A stretch of DNA of 54,235 nucleotides, counting the filler, from Sluysia triapertura (lineage: Eukaryota): NCBI GenBank assembly GCA_046118255.1. It is 4 parts of 4 records of this genome, joined end to end, with 100 filler letters (N's around TTAATTAATTAA, not from the genome) between each part and the next. Parts side by side here need not be neighbours in the genome. Positions count along the whole stretch, not along the records: positions 17,030 to 31,752 come from JBJNIA010250531.1; 3 more parts are not named here. The stretch is one strand, 5' to 3'. Position 1 is the stretch's first letter, and each line of letters starts with the position of its first letter. Made by a program: the position numbers and the translations under genes. The notes beneath the pieces are model-generated. The model worked only from the letters and a program-made list of their open reading frames with translations, did not search any database and was not told where the DNA came from. Below are positions 9,830-51,124 of the stretch, piece by piece.

Positions 9830-10300
9830 CTTACTTTTCGTTAAATGTTGAGCTGTTTTTACGCTCAATTCATAAGAAAAATTTCCGTGGGTTGTGTTAC
9901 AGATTTTCTTCTCAAGTTCAGGTAGCGAACATATTAATAGTATTTGATTAATAGCATTTAGATAAGAAGAATAGAATTTAAAACCATTACGGAAGTCCTG
10001 AATATGTTTTAGAAATAAAACAATAATTGGAAACCAAGATGAATATTTCATTGAGACATAATAATAATCTATACAGAATCCATAGTGATAACAAACTAGG
10101 TGATAGGTTTTATACTGTTTATGTCTCAATAATATACAACCAGTTACCAGAGAATGTCAAATGACTGGAAGATTATGAAATATTTAAGAAAATGGCAGAG
10201 TTCTTTCTATTTCAGAAATATTATGGTGAATGATTTACCTTAAGTGCTTCTGAGTACTTTCGCAGTAGATATGAGCGCAATATAAATTAATATATTATTA
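9830..10300 (+). mobile_element. 3' end of an L2/CR1-group LINE
   Basis: Translation GDRFYTVYVSIIYNQLPENVK*LEDYEIFKKMAEFFLFQKYY matches the L2-group ORF2 C-terminus (GDRAFS.....WN.LP...FK..LK..LF). Followed by tail ...GAGCGCAATATAAATTAATATATTATTA, shared with 39003-39090. Confidence 0.7.
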
Positions 10301-11494
10301 TTTAAAATGTTTTGTAAAGTTTTTGACATTGTTTACATTAGAATTAAAAAGATTTTTAATAGATATTTAATTTTCTTAATACATTGACATTATTCGGAAT
10401 TCTAGCGAATTAAATATGTAATCAATTGAAAACAAAAAAAAATCACTCATTGGATATATGGTTAAGTAATTGTTTCAAAAATTAATTTCTGGTGCCTTAA
10501 ACTCTGTGGTCCATTTTTCATTGTCAAACATTCATTAAAATTGTATTTCTTTTCTATATATTCAAATTGACTTTCAAATTTCGTTCTAAAATTAAGCTGG
10601 ATCTGACCACCAGCACTTTATAAAATCAGTGTGCCGCAAAGTATTAAAAAATACAACTATTTGTTGCTTAAGTTTAATTATATGATTATTCAAGACGTTA
10701 AGTAGTGGTACAATTGTGGTTTATTATTTCAAAATTCAACATTACTTTTAAGTTAAACATAAAAGCTTTGAAATTATTTACATGTGAGCAATTTACAAGT
10801 CGTCATACTTAAACATATAAAACAATCACGCTTAAAATATTTAAAGAATACAAATTTATTTATTTATGTAAGAATATATTTATAAAAATACCTCAAAGTA
10901 TTTATACCATATTCAATTATATATTTGGATCTTATACAATTAAATTCATTAACGAGACAACGTATAATTAAACTATAATAATTTTCAATTATTAAAATAT
11001 GTATCACATTAAATATTTCAACATTTACAAGACATACACCATTATAGATATCATTTGGGTTATATAGAGGTCAATTTAATAAGTTTATTTGCTCTTCATT
11101 AAAGTTTTACTTTACTATTTTTAAAATGTGTTACTATAAATTATATTGGTTCTTAACGTATAATCATTATATTTGGTGTTTTTATATGCTATATTTTCTA
11201 GAATTTCTTTTCTTTTTTCGATATCAAAGCTTTACTGCATACACTTTAAATCGATTTTATCATTTATCGGCTTACTTTAAAAGGAAATTAATATTTGGAA
11301 AATTCATAAACCTATTCAGTTTTCTGTTAATGCTTCAAAATTAATTTATGCCTTTAAAATTTAAAATCAAAGTACATCTTAATATACTTTTAAAATATAT
11401 TTAAAAATATTAAATATTATATATCAGATAATCCAAATTTAAATTAAGTAAATAATAATGGCGATGATGACTAAATTTCATGTCACTGTATTAG

Positions 11495-14784: not shown

Positions 14785-16388
14785 CTAGAATTAATATTTC
14801 GTATTGTTAATTATTGTAAATGAAAATGAAACACTATTTATACACTTTGAAAAGTAATGCGAAAAAGATAAGTTCTATAATAAATAATATAAATCGATGA
14901 AAAAGTGAAGATAAAACAATATTCCAATGAAAATAATTTTCTGGTTTTAAATTGATGTATTTAATCCGAATTTATGAGAAACTCGGTTTATAATGTTATA
15001 AGGTAGAAACTGAATTTATAATTACTTCTTTTGCTTAATTTTTTGTTTTATATTTTATGTTTTATATATGTTTTATGTTCTGCATTTTCGCTGCAAAATG
15101 CAGAATATTTAAACTATTATCATATATGTATATATCTCTTCTTTACTGTAAATTAGAGATTTAAATTGAACTCGTTTTTCGTCACACGCAAATATTCGCT
15201 TGACAGATCTTTTTATCTAATAGAATTTTACAGTTTCATTTGCGATGAATGTAAGTGATTTACAATAGTTGATAACGAATGCATAAATTAGTAACTAATG
15301 AACATTACTATATTTGTAATTAAATCTTTTAAATCTTTTAACCTGCGGCAGGATTCGCTTACAGTAAACGTCTCTAACAAGTGAATTAATAACTTATCTA
15401 AATATAAATGCTACGTGGCTAGGGTCTTAACAAGTGCTCAAAAGTACAATTTTATCAGAAAATTTTAATAATATAAACTTTTAACAATTAAATAATGCAA
15501 AAACGTTAATTTTATTTATAAAATGCAAAATTGTAACAATGATAGTGGTAAGACAAAAGAATATAAAAATAATTATTTTATTAGAGCGTTTAATCTAATA
15601 CTCAAATATTTTAAGTTGATATTAACCCTCAATGTTTACAAATAATATTAGACTTTTGTGTATATTTTAAAATTTCAACTTCTAAATTTTAAAATTAACC
15701 TTTTAAATATATAATTTACCAAAGAATGGATTTGCTGTTATCCAGTAAACATTTTCCAATCTTTTGAATTACTGTGAATTGCAAACCGTTACTAAAAATT
15801 TACAATTCCTCGACAAAGAAATTATAGAAACGAATTTTCTTTTTTTCGAAAAATAATTTATTTTTTGGAAAATAATTATTTCTTAAGTGATTTTAAAGAT
15901 CTATAAATAGTTTTAAACAATTTTATTTGATTTTAAATAATTTTAAACTGTTATTATGTCATTTTAAATTATTTTCCAGGGTTGTGATGACATCATAACA
16001 AAAAAATTAAAAAAGACAAAATTACTTTTTAAAAAATCCAGCAGAATTTGTGAACCAATCCGAGGAGCATCAATAATATGTAAAAAATAATGAAGAAAGG
16101 TCTATCACAAGTCGATTTAATAGAAGCGATAAATTCATTTGTTAAAGAAATATCTAAAAACGATTGTGCAAGGTTTTAATTGTTTTTAGTTTCATTGGTG
16201 ATTTTAGTGTTTTTTTTACCTTACAGAGTTCATTTATATTGTATCGGTGTATAATTTTCAAATACAAAATCAGATATAATCTTAATTAACTTGTTCTAAA
16301 TTTATCGGTTTTATCTATAAAATATTTTTCCATGTTTTTCCAGAAAATTTATTACAGAAGATTAATTTTAAAATTAAAAACTACTTAC

Positions 16389-16929: not shown

Positions 16930-17029
16930 NNNNNNNNNNNNNNNNNNNNNNNNNNNNNNNNNNNNNNNNNNNNTTAATTAATTAANNNNNNNNNNNNNNN
17001 NNNNNNNNNNNNNNNNNNNNNNNNNNNNN
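16930..17029. other. Assembly gap with artificial TTAATTAATTAA linker
   Basis: N-run with a central six-frame-stop linker, identical in all three gaps. Confidence 0.97.
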
Positions 17030-17030
17030 T

Positions 17031-18011
17031 GAAAACTTAGTTCATGATGTGGCACGAATATTAGTTAAAGAGAATTGTGAAAACTTAGTTCATGATGTTA
17101 TACATATATTAGTTAAAGAGGATTTTGAAAAGTTAGTTCATGATGTTGCACTAATATCAGTTAAAAAAAGTCAAGCAGTATACGATAATCGTGAATGTTT
17201 ATTTTCTACAGAAGTCTACAGTATGCATTTTACAAAGAATGATGTAAACGAGGTGTTCAGATGTAAATACGATGAATTCAAGTCAATGCTCTATGATTCA
17301 TTCAAGCTGGTCTACGGTGAGGTATTAAATGTCAATGAAGAGATGAAGTATGCAAATAGCCTAAACGTTTGCTCGAATCAAGTATTCAATATCAGAAAAT
17401 TCGTGAGCCCTAAAATTAGTCTGGAAGATCAACCGAACCATATATTTGGCATCAATACAAACACGAGATACGCGAGCAACTCCGATGGCGCAGCGAGATT
17501 ACTATTGGGTAAGAGTTATAATCCTAGTAATTCATCTATAAATATTAACTACGCTTTATTTTATTATCTTTCTTCCAGATACAAGTATCAACAATCTGAA
17601 TCTATGAAGAAGGGAATACCTCTGAGGTGCAGCCACAATAACAATTTATGTCTTATCGAAATTTATGCAATATTAATAAATAAGTCCATAAAACATTTTT
17701 ATTTCAATGACTTCAAATTTTTGTTTAAAATCCCATTATTGAATGTTGTAAAAAAGAAATTTTATCTCAACGCAAAATCGAATACTGTTACTATTGTGTT
17801 AAATAATTGTTACAAAACCTTGCACTGTAGTTCGATTTTTAGGATTGACATAACTTTGACTGACGCTTTCGTCAACGAAAATCAGTCAATTGTACTTTTT
17901 CCACAATCCAAAAGCTTTAAACATACCATGCCACTCAGCCATTATAGCAACTCGAAATCTCATCCAATAGATTTATCCATACTTACTATACTTCCATATA
18001 AGTTCTTCTAA
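17031..18011 (+). CDS. Intronless orphan ORF, 5'-truncated at the gap, with N-terminal 16-aa tandem repeats; possibly a retroelement or viral accessory gene
   Basis: Open for ~326 codons in very AT-rich DNA. Three 48-bp units (ENLVHDVARILVKENC / ENLVHDVIHILVKEDF / EKLVHDVALISVKKSQ) begin right at the gap edge. No domain recognised. Confidence 0.55.
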   Translation, partial: ENLVHDVARILVKENCENLVHDVIHILVKEDFEKLVHDVALISVKKSQAVYDNRECLFSTEVYSMHFTKNDVNEVFRCKYDEFKSMLYDSFKLVYGEVLNVNEEMKYANSLNVCSNQVFNIRKFVSPKISLEDQPNHIFGINTNTRYASNSDGAARLLLGKSYNPSNSSININYALFYYLSSRYKYQQSESMKKGIPLRCSHNNNLCLIEIYAILINKSIKHFYFNDFKFLFKIPLLNVVKKKFYLNAKSNTVTIVLNNCYKTLHCSSIFRIDITLTDAFVNENQSIVLFPQSKSFKHTMPLSHYSNSKSHPIDLSILTILPYKFF

Positions 18012-22580: not shown

Positions 22581-23270
22581 GGTCTTAAGACCTAACAGCC
22601 ATTTACCTTTTCTTGCGTTTTATGTTTTTCATCAACTTATACAGTTAATGAATTGTGTAGGAGTGTTATCGCGCGGCATTATTAATCATTTCTTTGTAGG
22701 TTTCAAAAGCTTGAATATTATTATTATATTATTATTATAAAATTATTACTATTATGCTTTATGCAGTAGTACCACTTATTACTTGTATTTATTGTTATAA
22801 TCATTATTTCGCATATTATCAATATTATTGTTATTATAATTATGGCACAACCTAATACTTGTTTATTGTTAATACTTGAATATTTTTACTAAACGTTAAA
22901 AAAGAGCTATTTTATTCTGGATTTAATGGAAACGAACGTGTTTAAATCGCACAATTTGTTAAATTTATGAATATTCATTTGTTCATATGTTTACTATATA
23001 ATTTTCGTTAAGTTGATTATTGCTTGTGAAATTCGGATACATATAATCTTCTCGATCCGATGCTCGAAGGAATCATTGTCTAGGTGATTATTTAAAATTC
23101 TGTAAGCCATTGTTTTATGATTTTGTCAATCCATTCTTATATTTTGTTATTTTCTCACTGAATTTTAGTCATTTTTAAGTCTTATTTTTGCGAAGCATAT
23201 TTTAAAGTTATTTTTAGATAATGATTATTTTATACATTTAAGTTTCACTTATTGTATTTCATATTCCAAG

Positions 23271-23816
23271 GTATCATCAAGTGAAAATGGCATTATATTT
23301 GGCAATATTGTATACGATGTTGGTGGTGCTGCAGGTGAATGCAATTGTGTGGTGTTAAATGAAATACATATTGATATTCTTGAGTATCTCGAACCTGCAG
23401 GATGCTCTCGAACTGCTTATCGCAAAATGTGGACTGAATTCGAATGGGAAAACAAAGTAACTGTGAATACCAGAATATGTGACTTACACCAATATTTGAA
23501 GCATATTCAACAGCACACTAATATGCGATGCTTAACTCCTGCTGAAGCTATGCGAGGTCAATGTGATTATTTGTGTGTGACACTTTATGCACGTAGTGTG
23601 TTTGGTGAACATGTTTTAGCTAATTTGTGTTTAGAAAAACCTCCTGGTGAGTGTGAACCTGTTACTGGTCATTTGAGAATTCGAGCGAAAAGTCAAGGTA
23701 TGGCTGTAACTATGGGAGAAAAAGTAAGTGCGGCTCAGAAATTAACTCCAACTTCGGAAGCTATTGTTGGTCTAGAAAAAACAAAAATAATAATGCAAAC
23801 GGATGATGATTTTTGA
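23271..23816 (+). CDS. COPB1: Coatomer subunit beta, terminal exon
   Basis: Acceptor ...atattccaag, then [36 protein letters not shown]...[15 protein letters not shown]...TNMRCLTP...LYARSVFGE...[13 protein letters not shown], matching the conserved beta-COP appendage domain. Upstream exons not found in the window. Confidence 0.95.
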
Positions 23817-25572
23817 TAGTCAGTGGGTAGGAAATTTTTTATTATTTAATGACTTACAAATATGTTAATATAACTTGTTTTTATTTGATTTGTAAAATGG
23901 AATAGAAGACAAGATAAAATGGTATTTTATATATTAAGTGATAATTTGGGCTGGTTCAAAACCGATACAATTAATTTCTAACATTACAAGAAAATTCCCA
24001 AGATTATATACAAACTATAAATTTGTATACAATTATTCATTATCCCATTTACGTCTTATTTCCATTATTACTCATTTTTATTTTATCTTTTATACTTTCA
24101 CTAACTCTTAGTAATAAAATTTAATTTTTAACATAATTATTGATAGATTTTAATATCTACAAACATTCAGAATATGAACTCAAAGTTTTTAATAGATTCC
24201 TACAATCTTAACTCAAACTTTCACTTAACTAACAATAGCTCTAAGAGATTCAATACTTTCATATAATTATTTTATTAGTAAATACTGACAGATACAATCA
24301 TTTTCAAGTGTATGATTTGCAAATTGTGAATGATCTCGTCTTTCTGAATTTGAAATGATTGTGCTGCTTTATTTACTTACTATTTTCAATTTTAGATTAA
24401 TTTGTTTAACAATGCTCTAGTGTTTTAATTCAAATAGTTAACAATAAAAATTTTACTTAAACGATAATTACTTGCAATTATAACTGCATTGATATATTAA
24501 ATACTAATAGCAATATAGTAATAAAATAATAAATATAATAATGGTATTTAAAAAATAATTATTTAAAGTTTCAAAAAATATGAAATAATTATTATTTAGT
24601 AGTTTGCTATCCACTACTGTGAGTAGCTAAATTTTAACTAATAATGATAAATCGAAATTACAAATATATTTTGAAGGCAACAATTTATAGACAAGCATGA
24701 GAATTACATAGAATGTATGGTTTTATTAAAATAGAAATGAAAAGTTGAGATTAGTGTGTATGTAGTGCAAAGTTATTAAAAAGATTACAACTTATAGATA
24801 CCATTACGAAGGAAGGTAGTATGCTAGGATAACATGACAGTTCGAATTTTATGTGAACTTATTTATGAAGGCAGAAATAAATAAGGACATAATAAACGAC
24901 AGCTGAAGGATAATGCTCTAATAGAGTATATATAAAATGATTAGTCATACTTTGAGATAACAAATTACAATATTATGATTTATAGTAACTGCAATTCCGA
25001 CATTTAATTTGCAATGGTTTAATAGTAATTGAGTATAAAGTCAAATAATAATATCGAGTTCGGCGAGGTGTATCTTGTGTTTAATATATTGTTATCAGGA
25101 TATTTTAGACTTAGATTAGCTTTTTTATAGAATACAAACGTTTATGAATATGTTGGAGTAAAGGACTAAACAACCTAGAATAATAAACTATAATAAAACA
25201 AAATTGTTAGGCGGGGCTCGATTCTCGGTCGGTCTTTTTATTGAAGTCTAACAAATACCTAAGGAACTTGAATTCTTGAATCTAATCAAAACTTTAAAGT
25301 AATATAAATCTTTCATCTTAATCTTAAATTTATCACCTGACGATTTCAATAAAAGATTATCTAATAATAAACTTAGGTTCAGATTTCTTTCAATCTGACT
25401 AGCGGATTTTATTGTTTTTAAAAATTAATCTCCTAGTAACTTTTAAAAATTATTAAACGCAGTATTTTACTGTTTGCGTAGTAGGAAACAGACCTACCAA
25501 AGAGCAATAAAAAGTAAAACATGCGTATAAATAAACAAATAAAAAGAAAAACTAGTAATTCAGATTTTGAAA

Positions 25573-25636
25573 TGTTAAACTTCGTCAAATGGACAACTGG
25601 GAATCGAACCTCAGACTTCTGGCTGCGCAGTTCGAT
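25573..25636 (-). mobile_element. 5'-truncated copy of the tRNA-containing TG...CA element
   Basis: Minus strand ATCGAACTGCGCAG...GGTTCGATTCCCAGTTGTCCATTTGACGAAGTTTAACA aligns to the 3' half of 31178-31324. Confidence 0.75.
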
Positions 25637-26099: not shown

Positions 26100-26690
26100 A
26101 AGATAGAGGATAAACAAACGCATTAAAGTACCGAGATTAAATCACATATGACAACAATATTATTTATGTGGGATATGGAAGGAAAGGTCCTTGTAAGTAT
26201 TAAAGGAGGATTCAATGGAAAGTTTGATACACTGGCGTGCTAAACCAGTTATATCGGCCCTACGGAAACCTAGTTTTTCAGAAGGATATCATTTTCAGGA
26301 TCCCAAGAACCAAGTGCTCCAACGGTAAGCGTGTCAAGGGAAACCTGACATTTAGTTGTATTTGGAGCTTATCTCTCAGGTCAGAATATTCCGTAATATT
26401 GAAAATTCGGGCCCCCTTAAATTTCTCATAATCATTAATTGGCAACTTGACGTCAATGAGAAAAAGTTGGGAGGAATTGGTACCGTGCACTTGTATATCA
26501 GGTCTTCGGTAATGTTGGAATTAGTGAAGAGCAAAAGTAGATATAAAGGTTCAAGACTCAGGATAACAGAATAAGGTGAACATTATTGAGGAATTAAGAG
26601 AGGGGATTATGATAAGATAAGTATGTGAAATACTTGAATCAAGATAAGTCAATGAGAGTTAAGAAGAAATAACCTTTTGTAAGGTTTTAT
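26100..26690 (-). repeat. Dispersed repeat with decayed coding-like sequence; 26510-26690 is homologous to 43387-43575
   Basis: Minus-strand AAAACCTT...AAGG.TATTTCTTC, TTATCTTGATT.AAGTATTT, CTTATTCTGTTATCCT.AGT.TTGA and CTTCACTAAT.CCAACA occur in the same order at 43387-43575 (+). Confidence 0.65.
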
Positions 26691-27287
26691 TTGTTAAAAT
26701 ATTAAAATGCATTTGTTAATTAACTTAATTAAAAATTATTTAATTTGATAACTCAATAAAAAATGTTTGCTCATGATATAATGATATCAAATTTTGCCTA
26801 TATGTTAAGTTTTATTATTGGTTTTAGTAATGAAGCACGTCAACATAGATAACGTAAAATTAGTCATTTTAATTAATTTTGTAATTTAAAATTAAAGATT
26901 AAATATGTTCCAATGTCTGAACATTAATAAAGCATATATCAGATTAAAGCTTTTAAAGAAACAAGTCAGTATACGCTCTTGAGATTGCCGTGTAACGTAC
27001 CGTTAACGTCTTATATATGATATAAAATATTGTTATTAAAAGAAGTTTTATACTAGATTATAAATATAGGTAAATTATGATGATAATAATTTTTATATCT
27101 GTTTGTATAATTCCAATTGTGATATTAAATTGTGATTTGATTATTTTAAAGAGATATGGGATTGTTCTTCACAAAACTCATTATTTGTAGATAGTTGTCA
27201 GGCAATCCAAAGTCGGAAATTCATTGGAAATTTCATTTAGTAATGGGTCGAAATACAACGGAATCTAATAAAAATAGCATGTAGTAG

Positions 27288-27384
27288 TGTTGGGGTAAAA
27301 GCATAAAGTGCCCTGTAGCATCGAACTGCAAAGCTAGAGGCCCCGGGTTCGATCACCGGTCAGTCCATTTTACAAAGTCTAACA
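27288..27384 (+). mobile_element. Internally deleted copy of the tRNA-containing TG...CA element
   Basis: Begins TGTTGGGGTAAAAG...AAAGTGCC, keeps box B GGTTCGATCACC, ends GTCTAACA. Flanks GTAG / ATAG (4-bp TSD with one mismatch). Confidence 0.8.
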
Positions 27385-28499
27385 ATAGACATGCAAAATA
27401 ATTAAATTGAATTCCCGATTATCTGACAATTATCTCGATATTATACAAAGAGCTAACTTTTTACATAAAAAACACAACAATCCAGAAAAAACGACAACAG
27501 TAACTATTGAAACAACTTCTTGCTGTAAGGACGCTGGATTCAATTGAATCTTTTTCTTCAGTAATAATATTAAAATAAAAATAAGTTTACGTGGTTAGTA
27601 GAGAGTTAGGATTCATTTTGTCATTATTTTTTTATATTTTATATGTGGTAACAACATTCATGTTGTGTAACCCCTGCGATTTTTAGAGAGTTAAACAATA
27701 ATGTATTAAAGAATTTGATTTAAAGAAGTATTTTAACTATATAACAAGTTTGATTTATATAACTATAATTATGATATAAAGAAGTTGATTTTTAGAATTA
27801 TATTTGTCGCATAAGAGATTTGATTTGTATAATTGTTATATGAATATGTCGAGATTCAGTTTTTAGTTATTTTTTAGTTATTAAAGAGGGATATCAGTAA
27901 ACGATAAAACACAACAGTAGTCACCGGTAAGGGGTTTTTGCGTATCCATTTTGACTGAGAAGCCCATTTGTTTAAGTTTACTATGCAAACATTCGAGAAT
28001 CTTATTATGTCTGGCTGTACGGCCAATGATAGTTCGAGGACAAAGACATAGTACGTGGGCAATTGTTTCTCGTTCAAATTCACACCAGCGAAGCGTAATG
28101 GGAAGCTGCAGTCGAATGTTTTATGGAGAGAAATTAAGAATGCACTTTCTAGCCTTAAACATAAAAATCGAACTGTAGTTTTTTAATTGTAAAGAAAACA
28201 GACGACCAGATAGAGGACTTTTCATGAAGCATTTATCAAAGCGACCTTGGATTTTGTGGGATTTCCAAATATTGGTATTAAAATGTTAATCAGTTCATGA
28301 AGATATTTATCTACTTTCTCTTTATGAAACCGGTTTAATGTGACTTCGTTTTCACCAAGGATGGCGTATTTGATATTTAATTTTATTTGGTCCTCACATT
28401 AAAAGAAGCTAGCAGCAATTCGGTATTTTCGGCGCAAATTGGGGATAGATTGTCGAATTTTGGTCCACCATGTCAGAATTCATGAACGCTTATTGGTTT

Positions 28500-29870
28500 T
28501 ACCGCCATTAAGCCAAGATAGAGCATCAGAAATGTTTTCCACTTCTAATCTTTTAAAAGTATTATTAATATCTACTACGTGTGTAATAAAATCTTTTGAA
28601 AATATTATAATGTCATCAATATATAATATTACATTTTAGCAATCTGATAATACAACATTCATACATCTCTGAAATGTTGCTGATGCACTAGTTAGTTCAA
28701 CACTCGTATAATTCGTCTCCACTGCAAAAGCTGTTTTATGTATATTTTCCCGCTATTTCAATTTGCCTATAGCCATTTGGAGATCTAAAGCAGTGAAATA
28801 TTTAACGTTTCCTAATTTATCCAACATTTCGTCAATTCTTGGTAGTGGAAACACATCTTTCCTCGTAATTTTATTTAATTCTCTGAAGTCGATACAAAAT
28901 ATCATAGTTCCATCCTTTTTCTTGACTAATAATACTGGTAAGAAAAATGGTGAAATTTTTGGTCTAATGACTCCAGCCTTTTTCATTGATTCAATTTAAT
29001 CTTTCATCTCTTGTTGATTGCACATAGGTATTCTATATGGTTTCTTTCTGATAATTTTATCTTCTAGTAATGGAATTACATGTTTTATTATCATATGTCA
29101 CATTTATTTCTAGCTATTACCCAAGGATATCGATAAATAACCTTATATAGTAGTTCCTTGTTAAAGTTTTGGTTTTAATTTATATCTCTTCATAATCTTC
29201 ATAATCTTCAGTATCTATATCTCTTTGTAATTTGATATTTTTACTTTTTGGTTTATTATTTAATTCAAATTTATTTGTGATTATAACTTATAGTTCACTG
29301 TTTCCCCTAATTTTGTTCTTGCAAATAACCATTTATTTTCTTCCGAATAATCTATTATTCTTATTGGAATATTACAATATTCATGATTATTTTTCGAATG
29401 AATAAACATTATCGGACCCGTTTCTTAAAATATATATTGTGTTAGACTTAATATCCAAAGAGGTTCTTCTAATATAACATCATCGTCATCTATTGGTCTG
29501 TCAGTATAACTGTCCATTAATCTTGCTTTATTGAAATCTAGTTAAACTCCTTTTAATTGTGATAACACGTCCATTCATAACATCCTATTTTCGGGACATT
29601 TTCTCATTACCATGAATTTAATTTCAATTTTATTTTTCCCAATTTCACACAATATTTTCAAGACTCCAAGAATTTCGACTTCATCTCCTGTCATTCCTGT
29701 TAAATACAAATATTATTAAGTTCTTTTGTAGTTAGCGTTGATTCACTTATTCGAGAATCTACTAATTCTCATAACATTCTTCCGTTTACTTTCATATCCA
29801 CCATAGGTCTTCTTGCACTATTATAATTATTGTTTGCACAGATCATGTAAACTAAATTTCTTTGAGAAGG
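28500..29870 (-). mobile_element. Decayed Ty3/Gypsy pol: aspartic protease, reverse transcriptase, possible RNase H end
   Basis: Protease RPMVDMKVNGRML*ELVDSR. RT KAGVIRPKISPFFLPVLLVKKKDGTMIFCIDFRELNKITRKDVFPLPRIDEMLDKLGNVKYFTALDL ... HKTAF ... SATFQRCMN ... YIDDIIIFS. Then abruptly SDALS (RNase H-end-like ADALSR). Confidence 0.92.
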
Positions 29871-31177
29871 TTCATTTTAATTAACTGGTTCAATATTAAT
29901 TGTTTGTAATGCTATTTCCTCTGTTTGTTTTCTTTCTTATTTGAGAACATTTTATTGTGAATGTGCATGATGATGTAATAAAAATTTAGCCAAAATGGAA
30001 AACATCCTATTATCAGTTTCCATGTAAAACCTGATATTTTATATATGCCTACCACTGAAAATATCTGAGATAAAGTAAGATCAATAATTTTAACTATTAT
30101 GAATATATCTATTAATTCCGAAAATGCATGTCCTAATACTAGAAAACTTCCCCATATTTGTTCTAATGTATTGTGTGCAGATTTCTTAAAATGATGTGAT
30201 CCTAGTAATGATTCAAAATTTACTTTACCATTCTTTTCTACTAATGCTTTATCTACAATTTCTGTTAAAACTTTTGATCTTTTGATAGGGAATAATATTT
30301 CATACCAAGATGCTTGTATGTCTTCATGTGAATATATTCCTGATCTAAGGATATTTTGGTAGCTGAAAATTTTAATTTTGACTTTAACTATGTTTATGAT
30401 ATCCATAAATTATCATCAATTTCATATTCTGATGCCATCACGTTAGAACAGTATAGTGTTTTTGGTTTTAACCTATTAGTTGGTATAATTATTCTTGTAA
30501 CCGGTTTTAAATAAATTGGTTGATTTTTATACGTAACTGGTAATTCATTGGCACATTCATTTTCTTGTCTAATCTGTACTTCAACTTTCTTACATTTATA
30601 AGTATATAGTACTTCATTTATTAATCTGCGAAATACTCCTTATTCTAAAGGAAGTAATGGTGCTACTAGATCTGTTTAGTAATTGCTACGGCTAATTTAG
30701 TCCTTACAATTTATTTATTTAACTGACAATCTCTAGTTATCATGGCTTGATAAACTTTTTCTAGTGGCATAAATCCTAAATGGTAATAGAAGTCTATTTT
30801 ATTATTAAAATAAGTATTTAGTTTCAAATTCTTTGTGTTTTTACTTTACTTTGGATAAGTAAATACCATGATAATATGTTTATGTAATTTCTTGACCATA
30901 TCTAACAAATAATAATCCGTCATCTTTTTTATTAGCCACTAGTAATGTAGGTGTTTCTACTTTGTTAAGCCTTTTTCTTTGTGGTGAATCTAAATTATCT
31001 TTGTAAATTTGTTTTTATTTATTTCTTCTACTGCCAATTCTTCATCATCTTGATACATAAATACGAAAACTAGACTAAATTTAATATTAAAGGACACTGA
31101 ATTTTTTTCAATTCATATATTAATGTTGATTCACCATTGTCGCAGCTTGTTTGATCACTTTTACAAAATGGTCCTGA

Positions 31178-31324
31178 TGTTAGACTTCGTAAAATGGACT
31201 GACCGGGAATCGAACCCGGGACCTTCGCTGAGCAGTTCGATTGCTCTACCACTGAGCTATCAGCCCCGTCTAACAGTTTTATTTTATTATATTCAATGGC
31301 ACTTTAGGCCTTTTTTCCCCAACA
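31178..31324 (-). mobile_element. 147-bp element with TG...CA ends and a tRNA-like cloverleaf (solo-LTR/Helenus-like), inserted in env
   Basis: Minus strand: TGTTGGGG...TGTTAGAC-G-GGGCTGATAGCTCAGTGGTAGAGC...CCGGGTTCGATTCCCGGTCAGTCCA-TTTT-ACGAAGTCTAACA. Flanks TCAC/TCAG. Removing the element plus 4 bp restores the env frame (LEKGTMMS-GPFCKSDQ). Confidence 0.85.
31195..31266 (-). ncRNA. tRNA-like sequence (intact acceptor, D and T arms; unpaired anticodon arm) within the element; probably not a functional tRNA
   Basis: Acceptor GGGCTGA/TCAGTCC, D arm GCTC/GAGC, T arm CCGGG-TTCGATT-CCCGG, boxes A and B present, TTTT terminator immediately downstream. The anticodon stem does not pair; the 27288 copy has CTGCAAA (Cys-like). 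Confidence 0.6.
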
Positions 31325-31752
31325 GTGACATCATAGTTCCTTTTTCTAAATCAAAACTTTCATTGAAAGATCGTAAACTTATAATACTTGTTTCTTGTGC
31401 TAATACATTATTATAAATTTTCCATTCGTGTTCGATTGAACCTCTTTCACAAGTACCATCTAATAATTATTTTCTCATTATTTTTTATTTTAAGTTTATC
31501 TTCCTTATTTAAACTTATATGCCCAGTTTCCAAAGCGTCTCGACATTTATCTTAAATGGTTTTAATACATTAGAAATATCGATAATTGATGAATTGCTAT
31601 GATGTCCACAATACCTTATAACTACAGACCTTTTAACCGAACATTATCTAACCTCGAATGTTAAACTTTACTTTATTTTTATCGACATGATTATTAATTA
31701 TATGATTTTCAGTTAAACTACAAGAAAAATAGTCGAAAAGTTTGTAACAGCT

Positions 31753-31852
31753 NNNNNNNNNNNNNNNNNNNNNNNNNNNNNNNNNNNNNNNNNNNNTTAA
31801 TTAATTAANNNNNNNNNNNNNNNNNNNNNNNNNNNNNNNNNNNNNNNNNNNN
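31753..31852. other. Assembly gap with artificial TTAATTAATTAA linker
   Basis: Direct reading. Confidence 0.97.
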
Positions 31853-37300: not shown

Positions 37301-39002
37301 TTAAAATAAATTCAATTATAAAACTCCTAATATCAATTGAATTACAAAAACTCTCAATAGTAACTCAATTACAAAAACTTTGAAAATTTTAACTTTTAAC
37401 ATTAATGTAATTACGAAACTTTTAAAATCCTTAATATTACAAAGCCTTTAATATTAATTCAATTAGTAATAACTTTAATTTTACAAATTAATAAACTCAA
37501 ATTAACAATACAATTTAATATAAAATAATTATACAAATTAGACCTTTTAATCCAATAAATATAAATTCAACTATACACCAAACGTAAGAAATTAATAAAT
37601 AATTCACTGACAATTAAAGAAGCTTTTATGTACAAGATATGTTTAAAATTTCATTATTAAAATTTCTTTTAATATGCAATAATATTTTACAAAAATACTA
37701 GTGTCACTAGTTTAATCTAGAAAATCAAAAAATATAAGTTAAGTAATTAATTCATTTTTCCGTTAAAAGAAAAAAATCGACTTAATAACAACCAACTTGC
37801 ACGTTACCAATGATCATCGATAAGTTCAACGATATTTAATTTGTCCGTTGTCCGGTAAATCTTCCTGAATATAGCAGTAATTAATGGTGTTTCGTCTATC
37901 GGTTATCCATCAATTCTTCCAAAATCTGTTAATCCCTATTTGTCTGCTGCCGATTGAAATTTTTTGTAAATAGAGAGTCCGGCTGATGAATGTATTTCAC
38001 TTCGTTTATTAAAGACTTAAAATCAACATTGATTTTTGTGTCTGCCTAAATCGTTATCTTCTTTATACACCCTAATTTTATCATTTAGCAGCTGTTTAAT
38101 TTATCACAATTAACTAGGTTTTCTAAACTAATATATTATAAACTAATTATTTTTTATTCTCATCATATCAGAAGAGGTTTTATTTTTCGTTTAATTTTCA
38201 TTTAACTAAATTTTATTATTTAGATCACAGTTTAAGTAATTATTTTTATTATTAATATATTTAAAATTAATATTATATTATTATTATTATTATTTCTTTT
38301 TCAGGTGATTCTGATTATGACAAAAATATCAATTCCAATGATTCCATCGCATAGGCATTGTTTCATAACCCTTCGCGAACATTTAATTATTTGTATTACT
38401 ATTGCTATATTGTTATTATTATCATGCTTATATCAATTATTCTCACTGAAGTCGTATCCATTAAATGTGCTGTCGTTTTTCTGAATTTAACCCCTATCAA
38501 AAATATTTTTTAGCAGGGTCAGGTTACAGCAACCAACGGGCAACGTATAGTGGGCGTTCCTGTAATTTTATAAGCTAATATTTTATCTGAATATAAATGT
38601 TCTGTAGTTGGAATCTTAATAAGTGCTTAAATATTGTAATTTTCTCAAAATCTTAATTTATTCTAAAGCTTTTAATAATTAAATAGAAAAAATTATTAAT
38701 TTTATTCACAAAATACAAAAGTTTTATAGTAATAACAAAACAAAAGACAATAAAAAAGGTATTTTAAGGATTAAAGCTCCGAGGGTGTTTAATCTAATAT
38801 AGTGCTCCTCAATATATCGTGGACACAATAATTAAAATAATTGAAAATTTAAGTCAATTTTATAATTTCAACTTCATAAATTACAAATTAATGGAATATA
38901 ATCGAATAATTGTTGCTCTGCGAATATTTCCAAAATATTGACCAAACTGTTAATTGTGAACAATCACTAAAATTTCACAATTACTCCAACAAAGACGCTA
39001 CA

Positions 39003-39447
39003 AATAATAATAATAATGATAATAATAATATATTAATTTATATTGCTCTCATATATACTGCAAAGTAAGTACTCAAAAGCGCTTAAGATAAGGTATTACA
39101 TGAGATCTCTTCCAATTTAGATAATTATTCTTGCTGTTTGATTAAATATCAATTGTAATTTTATGTATTCATAACTTGTTTCATCAGTTTTTTACTTCTC
39201 AATTTCCTTTCTTTGCAGCGCTTTATTCTTCGTAGCTCAATAATCTCCTAATCAATCACACCACATTTTTGCATTTTAAAGGTGCATACTTGTTTAAATA
39301 AAAGTATAATGTTCTGTTGTATAAATTGCTTAATGTATCTACATTGACTGTAAAATTTGTTTCTTTTTTGAACTTGCTCAATAAGTTTGTGCTCAGCTCC
39401 TCAATATCAATGTTTGATAAGTTTAGATGATTCAATAAGGGTATCAC
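39003..39447 (-). mobile_element. Internally deleted L2/CR1-group LINE copy
   Basis: ORF2 tether-like LSNLYNRTLYFYLNKYAPLKCK is joined almost directly to the same 3' tail as 10240-10300 (GCTT.TGAGTACTT...GCAGTA.ATATGAG.GCAATATAAATTAATATATTATTA) plus (TTA)n. Confidence 0.65.
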
Positions 39448-40416: not shown

Positions 40417-41092
40417 GTTACATAATATAAAGTAATTGATTATAACGTTGTACTTAAGTATAATTGATACACTTATAGTAAGCTAATTAAGTATACAGTT
40501 AATACACTCTCTTTAAGTTGATTTTAATCTAAGTTTTTTGATAAGTATAAATCCTAATAATATGTCTAAAACATGTATATTAGGCGAATCGACCCTCAGG
40601 TACTTTGTAAGTGCTAACCGTAAATTCTGACCTTTCTTCATTGATTTTCGAGTATTTATTTCCGAACCATTTAATCAATTTAAATTAGGATTATTATTGA
40701 TAAAATCTCATAGAGTTGCCTATCCTTAGGTTGAACGACGCTCACTATGGGCGAACCTATTAATAATTCTCATTTTGCATGGGTCTATACAAAATCTTTG
40801 ATATAAAAACCTTGTAGATCTCTTATTTAGAAAGTAACGAATTTTAAATGATCAATATTATAAGTATTCTTATAGGTTAAACTCATAATTTTTATTACAC
40901 TGTAATTTTTTCAAAATTACATAACAATAAATGTATTTTGTATTTCTTTAAAATTATTTCACCCAATAATATTATTAATTTAATTTTGCTAAGAAAATCT
41001 AACATGTGTATCACGAATACAAGTGATTTTAGTATTCATTGGTTATACAGATGTATAAAATAAATGAATTGGCCAATTTTATTTTAATCACA

Positions 41093-41992
41093 ATGAATGT
41101 ATCTCAGTATAGTGAAATCCATTGTAATAGTACCATTTTTAATCGTCTACCACCACCAATGGCACACTTTATTGCCTTTTTTACAATAGGTTTCATTGGT
41201 TTATTCTTGAATAGCACTTTATTGTATTTATATGGTAAATATCCACGACAAATATTTGGTAAACGAAAATCTTTTCAAGTTCTCATGTTATGGTTAGCAG
41301 TATTCGATTTAATGTCATCGATTGGATTAAGTCTAGAAAATGCAGTATTGATATATTTAATGGAACTACCTATTTATGTCTTACAAATAATGGTATCAAT
41401 GCGTAATATGTTAATAATTGATGAATTTATAGTTTTCATAGTAATCGGATTGGATCGATTAATGGCTGTCATTAATCCAATTAGTACAATATGGTCAGAG
41501 AGATTTGTTTGGAAATTATTGTGTTTACTAATTGTTTTAATAATACCAATCGAAATAATTTCTCGAGTAATCTATACTGTGCATTATTATAATTGTCGTT
41601 TAGTATTTTATTATCTTCTAACTTTATATTATTCATATAAGACAATAATATCAATTCTTTTGTTTACTTATATTTTTATATATTTAATGTTACTTATTGT
41701 CATCATTCAGAAAATATTTAAAAATAAAGACGAAATAAATAGTAGAAAATTTCGATTTATTTTAAAAGTATCTATCGTTATATTTGAATGTGTAATGTTT
41801 TATCTGATAACATTTTTACCGTGTTACATAATTTTAATAAGAAATGAAAAATTACCTGTTACAGTTGTACATATTATTTTACTAAATAGTGTAGCAAATG
41901 GATCAATATTTATTATTAATTCTCATTTTCTTAGAAATATTATTTTCAGACGAAAAATTGCTATCAATACACAATCTGAAAGTTTGAATTAA
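41093..41992 (+). CDS. Single-exon rhodopsin-family (class A) 7TM GPCR, divergent orphan type
   Basis: Seven hydrophobic segments; TM1 GLFLN, TM2 LAVFD, TM3 IGLDRLMAVINP, TM6 ITFLP, TM7 NSVANGSIF. N-terminal N-glycosylation sequons NVS and NST follow the likely ATG at 41093; ATG 41051 is an in-frame alternative. Confidence 0.88.
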   Translation: MNVSQYSEIHCNSTIFNRLPPPMAHFIAFFTIGFIGLFLNSTLLYLYGKYPRQIFGKRKSFQVLMLWLAVFDLMSSIGLSLENAVLIYLMELPIYVLQIMVSMRNMLIIDEFIVFIVIGLDRLMAVINPISTIWSERFVWKLLCLLIVLIIPIEIISRVIYTVHYYNCRLVFYYLLTLYYSYKTIISILLFTYIFIYLMLLIVIIQKIFKNKDEINSRKFRFILKVSIVIFECVMFYLITFLPCYIILIRNEKLPVTVVHIILLNSVANGSIFIINSHFLRNIIFRRKIAINTQSESLN

Positions 41993-42150: not shown

Positions 42151-42575
42151 ATCCATTTTTAATCGTCTACTAACACTCATACCAAACTTTGTTTATTTTT
42201 CAATAGCACTTTATTGTAGCTAAATTGTAAATATCCACGATAAATATTTGGTTAATGTCATCGATTGGATTAAGTATAGAAAATACATTTAATGGAAGTA
42301 TCATTTTATGTTCTACAAATAATGATATATCAATATATTAATAATTGATGGATTTATGGTTTTCATTATTATCAGATTAGATCGATTATTAATGGCTGTC
42401 ATTAATCTAATTGGTAGAGCATGGTCAGAGAAATTACTGTGTTTAATATTAATTGTTTTAATATTACCAATCGAATAATTGACACTATCAATTGTAATAA
42501 TTGTCGTCTTGTATTTTATTGTTTTTTTATTTTATATTATTTATATCAGTTAATAATACAATTCTTTTATTATTA
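42151..42575 (+). pseudogene. Decayed tandem duplicate of the GPCR (TM1-TM5 region)
   Basis: Collinear blocks shared with 41133-41660 (CCATTTTTAATCGTCTAC, AATAGCACTTTATTGTA, AAATATCCACGA, TTAATGTCATCGATTGGATTAAGT, TTAATGGCTGTCATTAATC, ATGGTCAGAGA, AATTGTCGT) with many deletions and stops. Confidence 0.9.
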
Positions 42576-43286: not shown

Positions 43287-43386
43287 NNNNNNNNNNNNNN
43301 NNNNNNNNNNNNNNNNNNNNNNNNNNNNNNTTAATTAATTAANNNNNNNNNNNNNNNNNNNNNNNNNNNNNNNNNNNNNNNNNNNN
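43287..43386. other. Assembly gap with artificial TTAATTAATTAA linker
   Basis: Direct reading. Confidence 0.97.
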
Positions 43387-43575
43387 TAAAACCTTGTAAA
43401 GGCTTATTTCTTCGTATTTTTCATTATTTTATCTTGATTTAAGTATTTTATATGCTTATCCTAATATTACAGTTCATCATAATACCTTACCTTAGTTCTT
43501 TAATAACGTTCGACTTATTCTGTTATCCTAAGTTTTGACCCTTATATTAACCCTTTTCCTTCACTAATCCCAACA
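43387..43575 (+). repeat. Dispersed repeat, second copy of 26510-26690
   Basis: See the 26100-26690 feature. Confidence 0.65.
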
Positions 43576-45786: not shown

Positions 45787-45911
45787 TGTTGGACTTCATA
45801 AAATGGACTGCTCTACCTACTGAGATATCATCCCCGTTTAACAATTTTATTTTATTATAGTCAATATTACTATCATAATTTTACATAGCACTTTAGGCCT
45901 TTACCCCAACA
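45787..45911 (-). mobile_element. Internally deleted copy of the tRNA-containing TG...CA element
   Basis: Plus strand TGTTGGACTTCATAAAATGGACTG|CTCTACCTACTGAGATATCATCCCCGTTTAACA...GCACTTTAGGCCTTTACCCCAACA. Both termini are retained, T and anticodon arms are deleted, and no clear TSD is seen. Confidence 0.8.
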
Positions 45912-49930: not shown

Positions 49931-51124
49931 TAAGTTATAAAATTCGATTGTTTTAAATCCACTTGGTATTTTATTTACTTTAAAAATTTTCTCGAAATCA
50001 AAACCTTTATTTAAACTTTTTCTAAACCGTTATGAATATTAAAACGAATATTACTTAATTGAAATTTTCTTTATAGTTATAAATTGATAAAAGTAATAAA
50101 AATGATAAAAAATAATAGAATGGTATAGTGAAAAAATAGTAAAAATAATAAAATATTAAAAATAATAAAAATATTGAAAATAATAGAAATAATAAAATAT
50201 TAAAAATATTACGCGAAGTGACAATAATGATGATGTGAATGATGATCAGGGGAAGGAACCATGATATTGGTGTTAAAGATTTTAATTTTTTATTTAGTGT
50301 TATTTGTAGTTTATGCGGATGTAGGAAAGTGGAGATGACATTAAACGGTTGGATCTGGAATTATATGGATGTAAAGAGTAACAAAATTATTAATAAGCGT
50401 GACACCACAAAAGTTATCATGGTATACTACTTTTGCAGCTCCAGCTGTGTTGATAATTTCGTAATCTGGTCAAACTTCTGATATATGGTGTTGGAATTTA
50501 ATACAAAAGTATAGATTGGATAAAATCTACCATTAATATATTTATTAAAATAATTATCTTTAATTTCGTTTTAAATTATACTTTTTTTACATTTAGATAA
50601 TGAAATAATTTTCCAACTTCTATTTTCAAAAAATGCATAGAACTCAGATTAATATTTTGAATTCTTACGCAACATTGTGATTGAAAATATAAATGCTAAC
50701 TAGTTCTAAAAGACACATTTGGAAATTAATAATACTATCATTTGTACAAACTCGTTTTCAAAATATTTCACTCCATTTTATGAAATCTAACACTTTTATC
50801 TTCATTAATATTCCTATTTAAAATGTTTAATATTTTATAACTTACTAATACCAACATTTTATAAAATATGCATAATTATAGTGATGCATTAATAATAGAA
50901 ACAAAGTATGGTTCCTAAGGCATTTGCCCAATTCCGACATAATATCAAATTAACATATACTAAAATTATGTTCACAATATAAAAGATAATAATTAAATAT
51001 AATTAATAAACACAATCACTTACAATCTGAAGTGAATTTTAATTAAAAATTTGAAATGTTTATTTTTGTAAATAATAAAGCCTTAATTTATTTTTAGTAT
51101 TTTCTGTATTGAAATAAGTGACTG

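Follow-up and report, generated by a model that had tools for sequence, protein, structure and literature searches.

The window, by which we mean the whole 54-kb stretch of DNA analysed here, contains five copies of a short dispersed repeat with a tRNA-like unit inside it. These copies are probably old solo LTRs of a TRIM that was mobilised by a Gypsy element, driven by RNA polymerase III (Pol III), and worked in the manner of Helenus. If so, they are in all likelihood the first case from flatworms of a TRIM that resembles Helenus and depends on Pol III, known here as solo LTRs only; membership in Helenus itself is unproven, since the paired structure is not seen among the window copies.

The window has ~25% G+C. 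The best named matches to a beta-COP exon at 23169-23816 are from trematodes (71-73% identity), followed by cestodes, with another protein at 82%; because flatworms match this exon best, the host is taken to be a flatworm. Three 100-base gaps (16930-17029, 31753-31852, and 43287-43386), each with a 12-base spacer in the middle, are artificial. Beside the first, three tandem 48-bp units (17030-17173) encode a 16-aa repeat with which a 341-aa frame begins. An intronless 319-aa ORF resembling a seven-transmembrane protein lies at 41033-41992 (+), with a degraded tandem duplicate ~930 bp downstream (~42190-42570). Two pairs of other dispersed repeats were also seen: 15387-15580 with 38576-38766 (73% identity over 199 bp), and 10235-10302 with 39021-39091 (87% over 71 bp).

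Copies of the element were sought in the window by blastn, with the most complete copy as query (31178..31324, minus strand; 147 bp, TGTTGG...AACA, with boundaries taken from contigs without the insertion), and by nhmmer. The five copies have nhmmer E values of 3e-45 to 2e-17, for a profile built on those same copies, and blastn E values for the others against the 31178 copy are 1e-17 to 4e-11. An earlier, sequence-only reading had listed four copies, all of which both programs find where it placed them; it missed the fifth, a 103-bp copy at 25151..25253 (+) that has lost the region from the A box to the anticodon. The remaining copies are one of 97 bp at 27288..27384 (+), placed by the profile, in which the 3′ part of the leader and the D arm are deleted; one of 125 bp at 45787..45911 (-), likewise placed, with the longest leader but without the anticodon and T arms; and one at 25573..25636 (-), found by blastn and nhmmer, which has no recognisable 5′ end and a weak profile extension to 25656. 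A possible 22-bp remnant of the 3′ end at 50771..50792 (+) is not significant (nhmmer E 2.1; blastn E 0.002), and is left out of the copy count. Between 50768 and 50856, this 3′-end-like remnant abuts an opposite-strand stretch that starts like a second TGTTGG family (described below), an arrangement that could be explained by nesting of relics or by chance.

The four copies with two ends (4/5) start TGTTGG(G/A)G and end (T/C)AACA, and the AACA end is without a tail in all five, as the sequence-only reading had said of full copies; its statement of the start is corrected accordingly. Any two copies are identical at 16-25 of their last 26 bases, and the family is therefore old. Internal deletions differ among the copies other than that at 31178, and five more deletion joints fall inside the tRNA-like unit among the 15 (of 51) joints listed for a sequencing run, X1, that the element matches. 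X1 is the one run listed as containing the element; RNA runs are absent from that listing, which has no bearing on expression.

The order of parts is the TGTTGG end, a leader of 58-77 bp, an 8-bp arm, the tRNA-like unit, a T4 run, ~13 bp, and AACA. The leader (U3, if these are LTRs) is 58 bp in the 31178 copy (31267..31324, minus strand), with a purine-rich 5′ block and then an AT-rich stretch that varies in length; the tRNA part is thus internal, as first reported, behind a leader whose range, by eye, is ~58-77 bp instead of the 60-80 bp then given. The inner 8-bp arm (31268..31275, minus strand) repeats the final 8 bp of the element (31178-31185) perfectly in inverted orientation. It may be left over from an LTR end that was once older and shorter, or it may base-pair with the 3′ end; true complementarity between the two ends of the element is 4-6 bp only. 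Compared with shuffled sequences, the whole 147 nt does not fold better (z -0.91), and the inner 98 nt does (z -2.57), mostly by virtue of the tRNA part.

The tRNA-like unit of the 31178 copy (31195..31266, minus strand) is recognised by ARAGORN and by Rfam (RF00005, 51.5 bits, E 3.2e-8). Its D and T arms pair. Where a functional tRNA has a paired anticodon stem with a 7-nt loop, the Rfam alignment of this copy has ~3 pairs around 10 unaligned bases, and with the anticodon arm so broken the ARAGORN label of Ser(CGA) is not credible. Because this arm is unpaired and the anticodon region varies among copies, the unit is, as far as its sequence goes, a promoter-like relic and no working tRNA. A scan with the Pol III A- and B-box motifs finds both in the 31178 copy: the A box at 31249..31259 (-; element position 66) and the B box at 31207..31216 (-; position 109). 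The tRNA-like body with Pol III boxes that all copies were said to share is intact in this copy; under the strict scan the two boxes occur together only here (1/5), with the B box alone in one other copy and neither in three, because of the internal deletions. A T4 run directly follows the unit (31191..31194, minus strand), and a run of four or five T's is found at that place in all four two-ended copies. Metazoan Pol III can terminate at four T's, and the run is a possible terminator.

Depth of X1 contigs drops tenfold in the leader beyond 31280, which suggested a 98-bp inner unit as the main mobile form. This was rejected, because the leader is present in all four two-ended copies and because at 31276, one base past the inner arm, where depth is 934,000, 89% of it has the letter of two other window copies. 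The leader is AT-rich and varies in length, and the drop more probably arises from the way it aligns.

The sequence-only reading had proposed integrase-type TG...CA ends with a TSD of ~4 bp, and the flanks agree. Among the four two-ended copies, 4-bp flanks match at 4, 3, 3, and 2 of 4 positions, or 12/16 (P=4e-4; ~0.004 after allowing for 11 lengths). Of the lengths from 2 to 12 that were tested, only 4 fits, every other giving P >= 0.48. Termini and TSD length, which it had been suggested should be tabulated, are thus fixed among the window copies. One copy alone has a perfect duplication (25151-25253; AATA/AATA, at 25147-25150 and 25254-25257). The 31178 copy lies between 31174..31177 and 31325..31328, which match at 3 of 4 positions; its flanks, TCAC/TCAG, and those of the 27288 copy, GTAG/ATAG, are as first reported, but the flanks of 45787-45911 (GTGC/CTGT) match at only 2/4.

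The boundaries of the 31178 copy could be fixed from contigs of X1, which may be the source sample, that represent the host repeat without the insertion; these are probably other copies of that repeat and not alleles. Seven of the 15 joints listed (51 in all) span the element, and three with unknown letters between were set aside. The remaining four rows represent six contigs: four are shorter by 151 bp, that is, by 147+4; one is shorter by 150 bp, beside a T-run and with an implied duplication of 3 bp; and one is shorter by 176 bp, implying 29 bp. The 4-bp duplication is thus upheld independently of the flanks by 4/6 informative insertion-free contigs.

The gene interrupted by the 31178 copy was first labelled env, which is a fair description: it is a decayed gene for a chuvirus-type fusion glycoprotein (PF24664), and it lies beside remnants of a Gypsy-type reverse transcriptase (RT). 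Profile positions 64-191 are on one side of the copy, and positions 366-491 and 468-611 lie beyond it; these matches are spread over three frames and contain many stops. Breaks occur throughout the gene, and the region is multi-copy in X1. Protease-like and RT remnants (RT: PF00078, E 2.4e-8) follow the glycoprotein directly on the same strand, within 28500-31750 (-); the Gypsy label and the protease motif are our reading of the translation. The glycoprotein and the Gypsy-type remnants may or may not belong to one element. The sections consulted of a study in arthropods (PMC10084718) describe no clear Gypsy capture of such a glycoprotein. This host retroelement is cut off by the gap at 31753-31852. 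At 27900-28250 (-), short frames without a Pfam match resemble the C-terminal zinc-knuckle/endonuclease region of non-LTR retrotransposons. The second repeat family, with members at 26513-26689 (+) and 43387-43575 (-) that are 73% identical over 190 bp, also starts TGTTGG; it looks LTR-like and is a candidate LTR of the partner element. A possible end at 26923 would give it the flanks GTAA/TTAA.

The high copy number expected from the sequence alone is supported in rough terms. When 11,494 X1 contig records were placed on 30800-31750, summed depth, which is not copy number and to which real tRNAs may contribute, was 1.0-2.2 million over the tRNA-like unit and the 3′ end and 0.3-85 thousand on the flanks, single contigs having 15-30; the implied depth at the last six bases, which are specific to the element, is 1.2-1.4 million. 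Depending on position and on the depth assumed, this gives an estimate of 17,000-147,000 copies. The density in the window (five in 54 kb, or about one copy per 11 kb and ~1% of the window), multiplied by the 735.5 million contig letters, gives ~68,000. Both point to a genome-wide abundance that is roughly in the tens of thousands, and the estimate is about tenfold above the largest published Helenus family, with 5,575 LTRs (PMC10886601). A pattern scan for the element gave no matches in viral contigs; the single match in a metagenome contig (L001) has flanks unlike those of the element, and is taken as chance.

Several features argue for solo LTRs. The TG...CA ends and the 4-bp duplication, both of them fixed, suggest a Gypsy-type integrase (PMC2836005, in part), and the short complementarity of the ends, in the place of long inverted repeats, favours an LTR over a DNA transposon. 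There are many dispersed, diverged copies, and a Gypsy-type RT is present in the window. The parent would have had the form LTR-PBS-short internal part-PPT-LTR, and Pol III would have transcribed it from the tRNA-like promoter of the 5′ LTR, with part-time read-through of the T4 run. Priming would have been at the PBS, with reverse transcriptase and integrase supplied in trans by a Gypsy element. LTR-LTR recombination would have left single copies, whose tRNA bodies would later have lost stretches to short deletions; a transcript of ~76 nt, though no working tRNA, could still come from intact solo copies.

Helenus (TRIMp3) elements consist of two tRNA-bearing LTRs with a PBS and a PPT, ~0.3-1.3 kb in all; in animals they have 4-bp TSDs and are linked to Gypsy by their PBS, the anticodon arm is broken in most, solo LTRs with TSDs are common, and Pol III transcription is unvalidated for the published families too (PMC10886601). 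Their LTRs, like the present element, have the form TGT...ACA and a similar length, with a leader, a tRNA-like unit near the 3′ end, and a T-rich stretch. By eye, the LTRs in the part of the supplement compared (PMC10886601) have the same part order at ~105-190 bp, many with the T-rich stretch behind the tRNA, and the tRNA body of one of them, Helenus-5_SaGl-LTR, shares identical blocks of 14+6 nt and 23 nt with the element. Common descent with the bivalve Helenus is not claimed: the likeness is in generic tRNA blocks, a plant Helenus LTR in the same material ends in the same way, and the leader and 3′ end of the element have no evident similarity to the LTRs compared. The element differs further in its flatworm host, its TGTTGG...AACA ends, its AT-rich leader and inner 8-bp inverted repeat, its higher estimated abundance, and the lack of any full-length copy in the window.

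The suggestion that these are solo LTRs of a Helenus-like TRIM agrees well with the layout and TSD of animal Helenus, but is unproven; the paired copies with PBS and PPT that it was proposed to look for are not seen (0/5 copies in the window). Same-strand copies are at least 2,034 bp apart, and two window copies bounding a larger element can be rejected, since none form a close pair on one strand and none have flanks in common (overlaps between neighbouring flank segments and short AT-rich matches excepted). Beside the four two-ended copies, TGG is not found in the first 6 downstream bases, nor a purine tract upstream (0/4 for each), as expected for solos. The sequence after 45787 faintly resembles a tRNA-Leu primer site, but several gaps are needed and TGG is absent, and the match is rejected. 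No shared PBS-like end or LTR-to-LTR joint occurs among the 6 of 409 loose ends, 15 of 51 joints, and 12 of 30 joint-letter rows listed for X1, in a search limited by the breaking of short-read contigs at repeats. Five solos in five would be improbable under the solo fractions of two high-copy animal families, LTR-11_DR (P <1e-4) and Helenus-2C_CGi (0.017); P is 0.10 for LTR-1_PTrit, and for three solo-rich families the result would be ordinary (0.43-0.62). Also against this reading, the estimated abundance is about tenfold that of the largest Helenus family, one of the four TSDs matches at only two positions, and one insertion-free contig in six gives 3 bp and another 29 bp.

Among other small LTR elements, Cassandra and Ajax also have a Pol III unit inside the LTR, 5S rRNA rather than tRNA. 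Ajax is rich in solos, with 1,114 LTRs to 151 internal parts (PMC10886601); unlike the element, it has 5-bp TSDs. The ta-TRIM of taeniid tapeworms is, like the element, from flatworms, with many solo LTRs and mostly 4-bp TSDs (52/57 in Echinococcus multilocularis), and a Gypsy-type partner has been proposed for it; compared by description only, it differs in that the sections of PMC4558846 consulted do not mention its LTR as having a Pol III unit or a tRNA. Helenus is recorded in six animal phyla, and flatworms are absent from Table 1 and the supplement of that survey (PMC10886601). The sections consulted of a planarian tRNA paper (PMC7962491) and of a Dugesia genome preprint (10.64898/2025.12.11.693146) describe no such element. 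In the open literature searched, as distinct from subscription journals, Repbase, and Dfam, LTRs that carry a tRNA are not reported for any flatworm. That the element is possibly undescribed in this lineage therefore holds for the literature searched; a Repbase or Dfam entry may exist.

Other origins for the copies are conceivable. One, which we think unlikely, is that the element is complete as it stands: a single LTR-like monomer of 150-170 bp with no two-LTR parent, with integrase attachment ends on both sides and a Pol III promoter derived from a tRNA, and spreading via tandem or circular intermediates with a Gypsy integrase. All five window copies are single, the abundance is SINE-like, and the 8-bp inverted repeat closes the tRNA unit onto the 3′ end. 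In two X1 contigs the 3′ end of one copy is followed, head-to-tail, by the inner part of a second copy after 2 and 8 letters; these spacers are too short for an internal part, the shortest seen in the Helenus material consulted being 43 bp (PMC10886601). Both joints are, however, single contigs at single-copy depth, which nested insertion or deletion would fit as well; a Pol III transcript from the tRNA head presumably could not copy the leader upstream of it, and no primer site is seen. Families rich in solos are in any case known among Helenus and Ajax, and this mode of spread, the equivalent of a SINE mobilised by an integrase, was not found in the literature searched. It seems quite improbable, too, that the copies are solo LTRs of a longer element, autonomous Gypsy or large non-autonomous, with a chance tRNA-derived insert. 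The same ends and TSD would be expected, many Repbase LTRs hold tRNA-like sequence, and the Helenus label is restricted to elements of <1 kb (PMC10886601). But the tRNA-like unit and T-run make up half of a 150-170 bp LTR, which is the Helenus layout, and no copy bounds the Gypsy fragment at 28,500-31,750, the 31178 copy being inside it.

The sequence-only reading had offered as an alternative a MITE moved by a Ginger-type transposase, with a captured tRNA-like unit; the comparison disfavours this, and we give it little credence. Ginger1 and Ginger2 do have TGTNR ends and 4-bp TSDs, but according to part of the same description these are common to Gypsy LTRs and so do not discriminate (PMC2836005). 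Single copies and high copy number are likewise normal for MITEs. The terminal inverted repeats (TIRs) are another matter: in the sections consulted they are given as 40-270 bp for Ginger1 (PMC2836005) and ~50-180 bp for Ginger2/Tdd, with 52 bp in the 252-bp non-autonomous Ginger2-1N1_NV (PMC2836005, PMC3845634), compared with 4-6 bp of complementary ends here. The same sources give CCGG or CCGT/ACGG as Ginger1 targets and RTATAY as preferred by Ginger2/Tdd; in a small sample, none of four element sites has a CCGG/CCGT or TATA target, although two are AT-rich. A conserved Pol III unit and T-run would also be of no use to a MITE. That the element is an ordinary tRNA-derived SINE mobilised by a LINE is very improbable indeed and largely refuted, as the sequence-only reading had already held. 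In SINEs the tRNA head comes first and a tail last. The element shares with tRNA-derived SINEs (SINE2) a tRNA-like Pol III promoter region, shortness, high copy number, and frequent truncated-looking copies, but its tRNA-like unit is internal, behind a leader of 58-77 bp that belongs to the family (4/4 two-ended copies; 89% one letter at 31276), and its ends and 4-bp TSD are fixed, with no tail.

In flatworm assemblies, tRNA counts and "SINE/tRNA" labels may be inflated by LTR relics of this kind, ARAGORN having called one copy a tRNA-Ser. If small LTR-like monomers were after all the mobile form, they would represent a novel mode of spread for small Pol III units. If the copies are instead solo LTRs of a Helenus-like TRIM, Pol III-driven TRIMs would extend to a seventh animal phylum and to SINE-like abundance, and this flatworm would be a good system in which to study Pol III transcription of Helenus and the question of whether such elements occupy the SINE niche.
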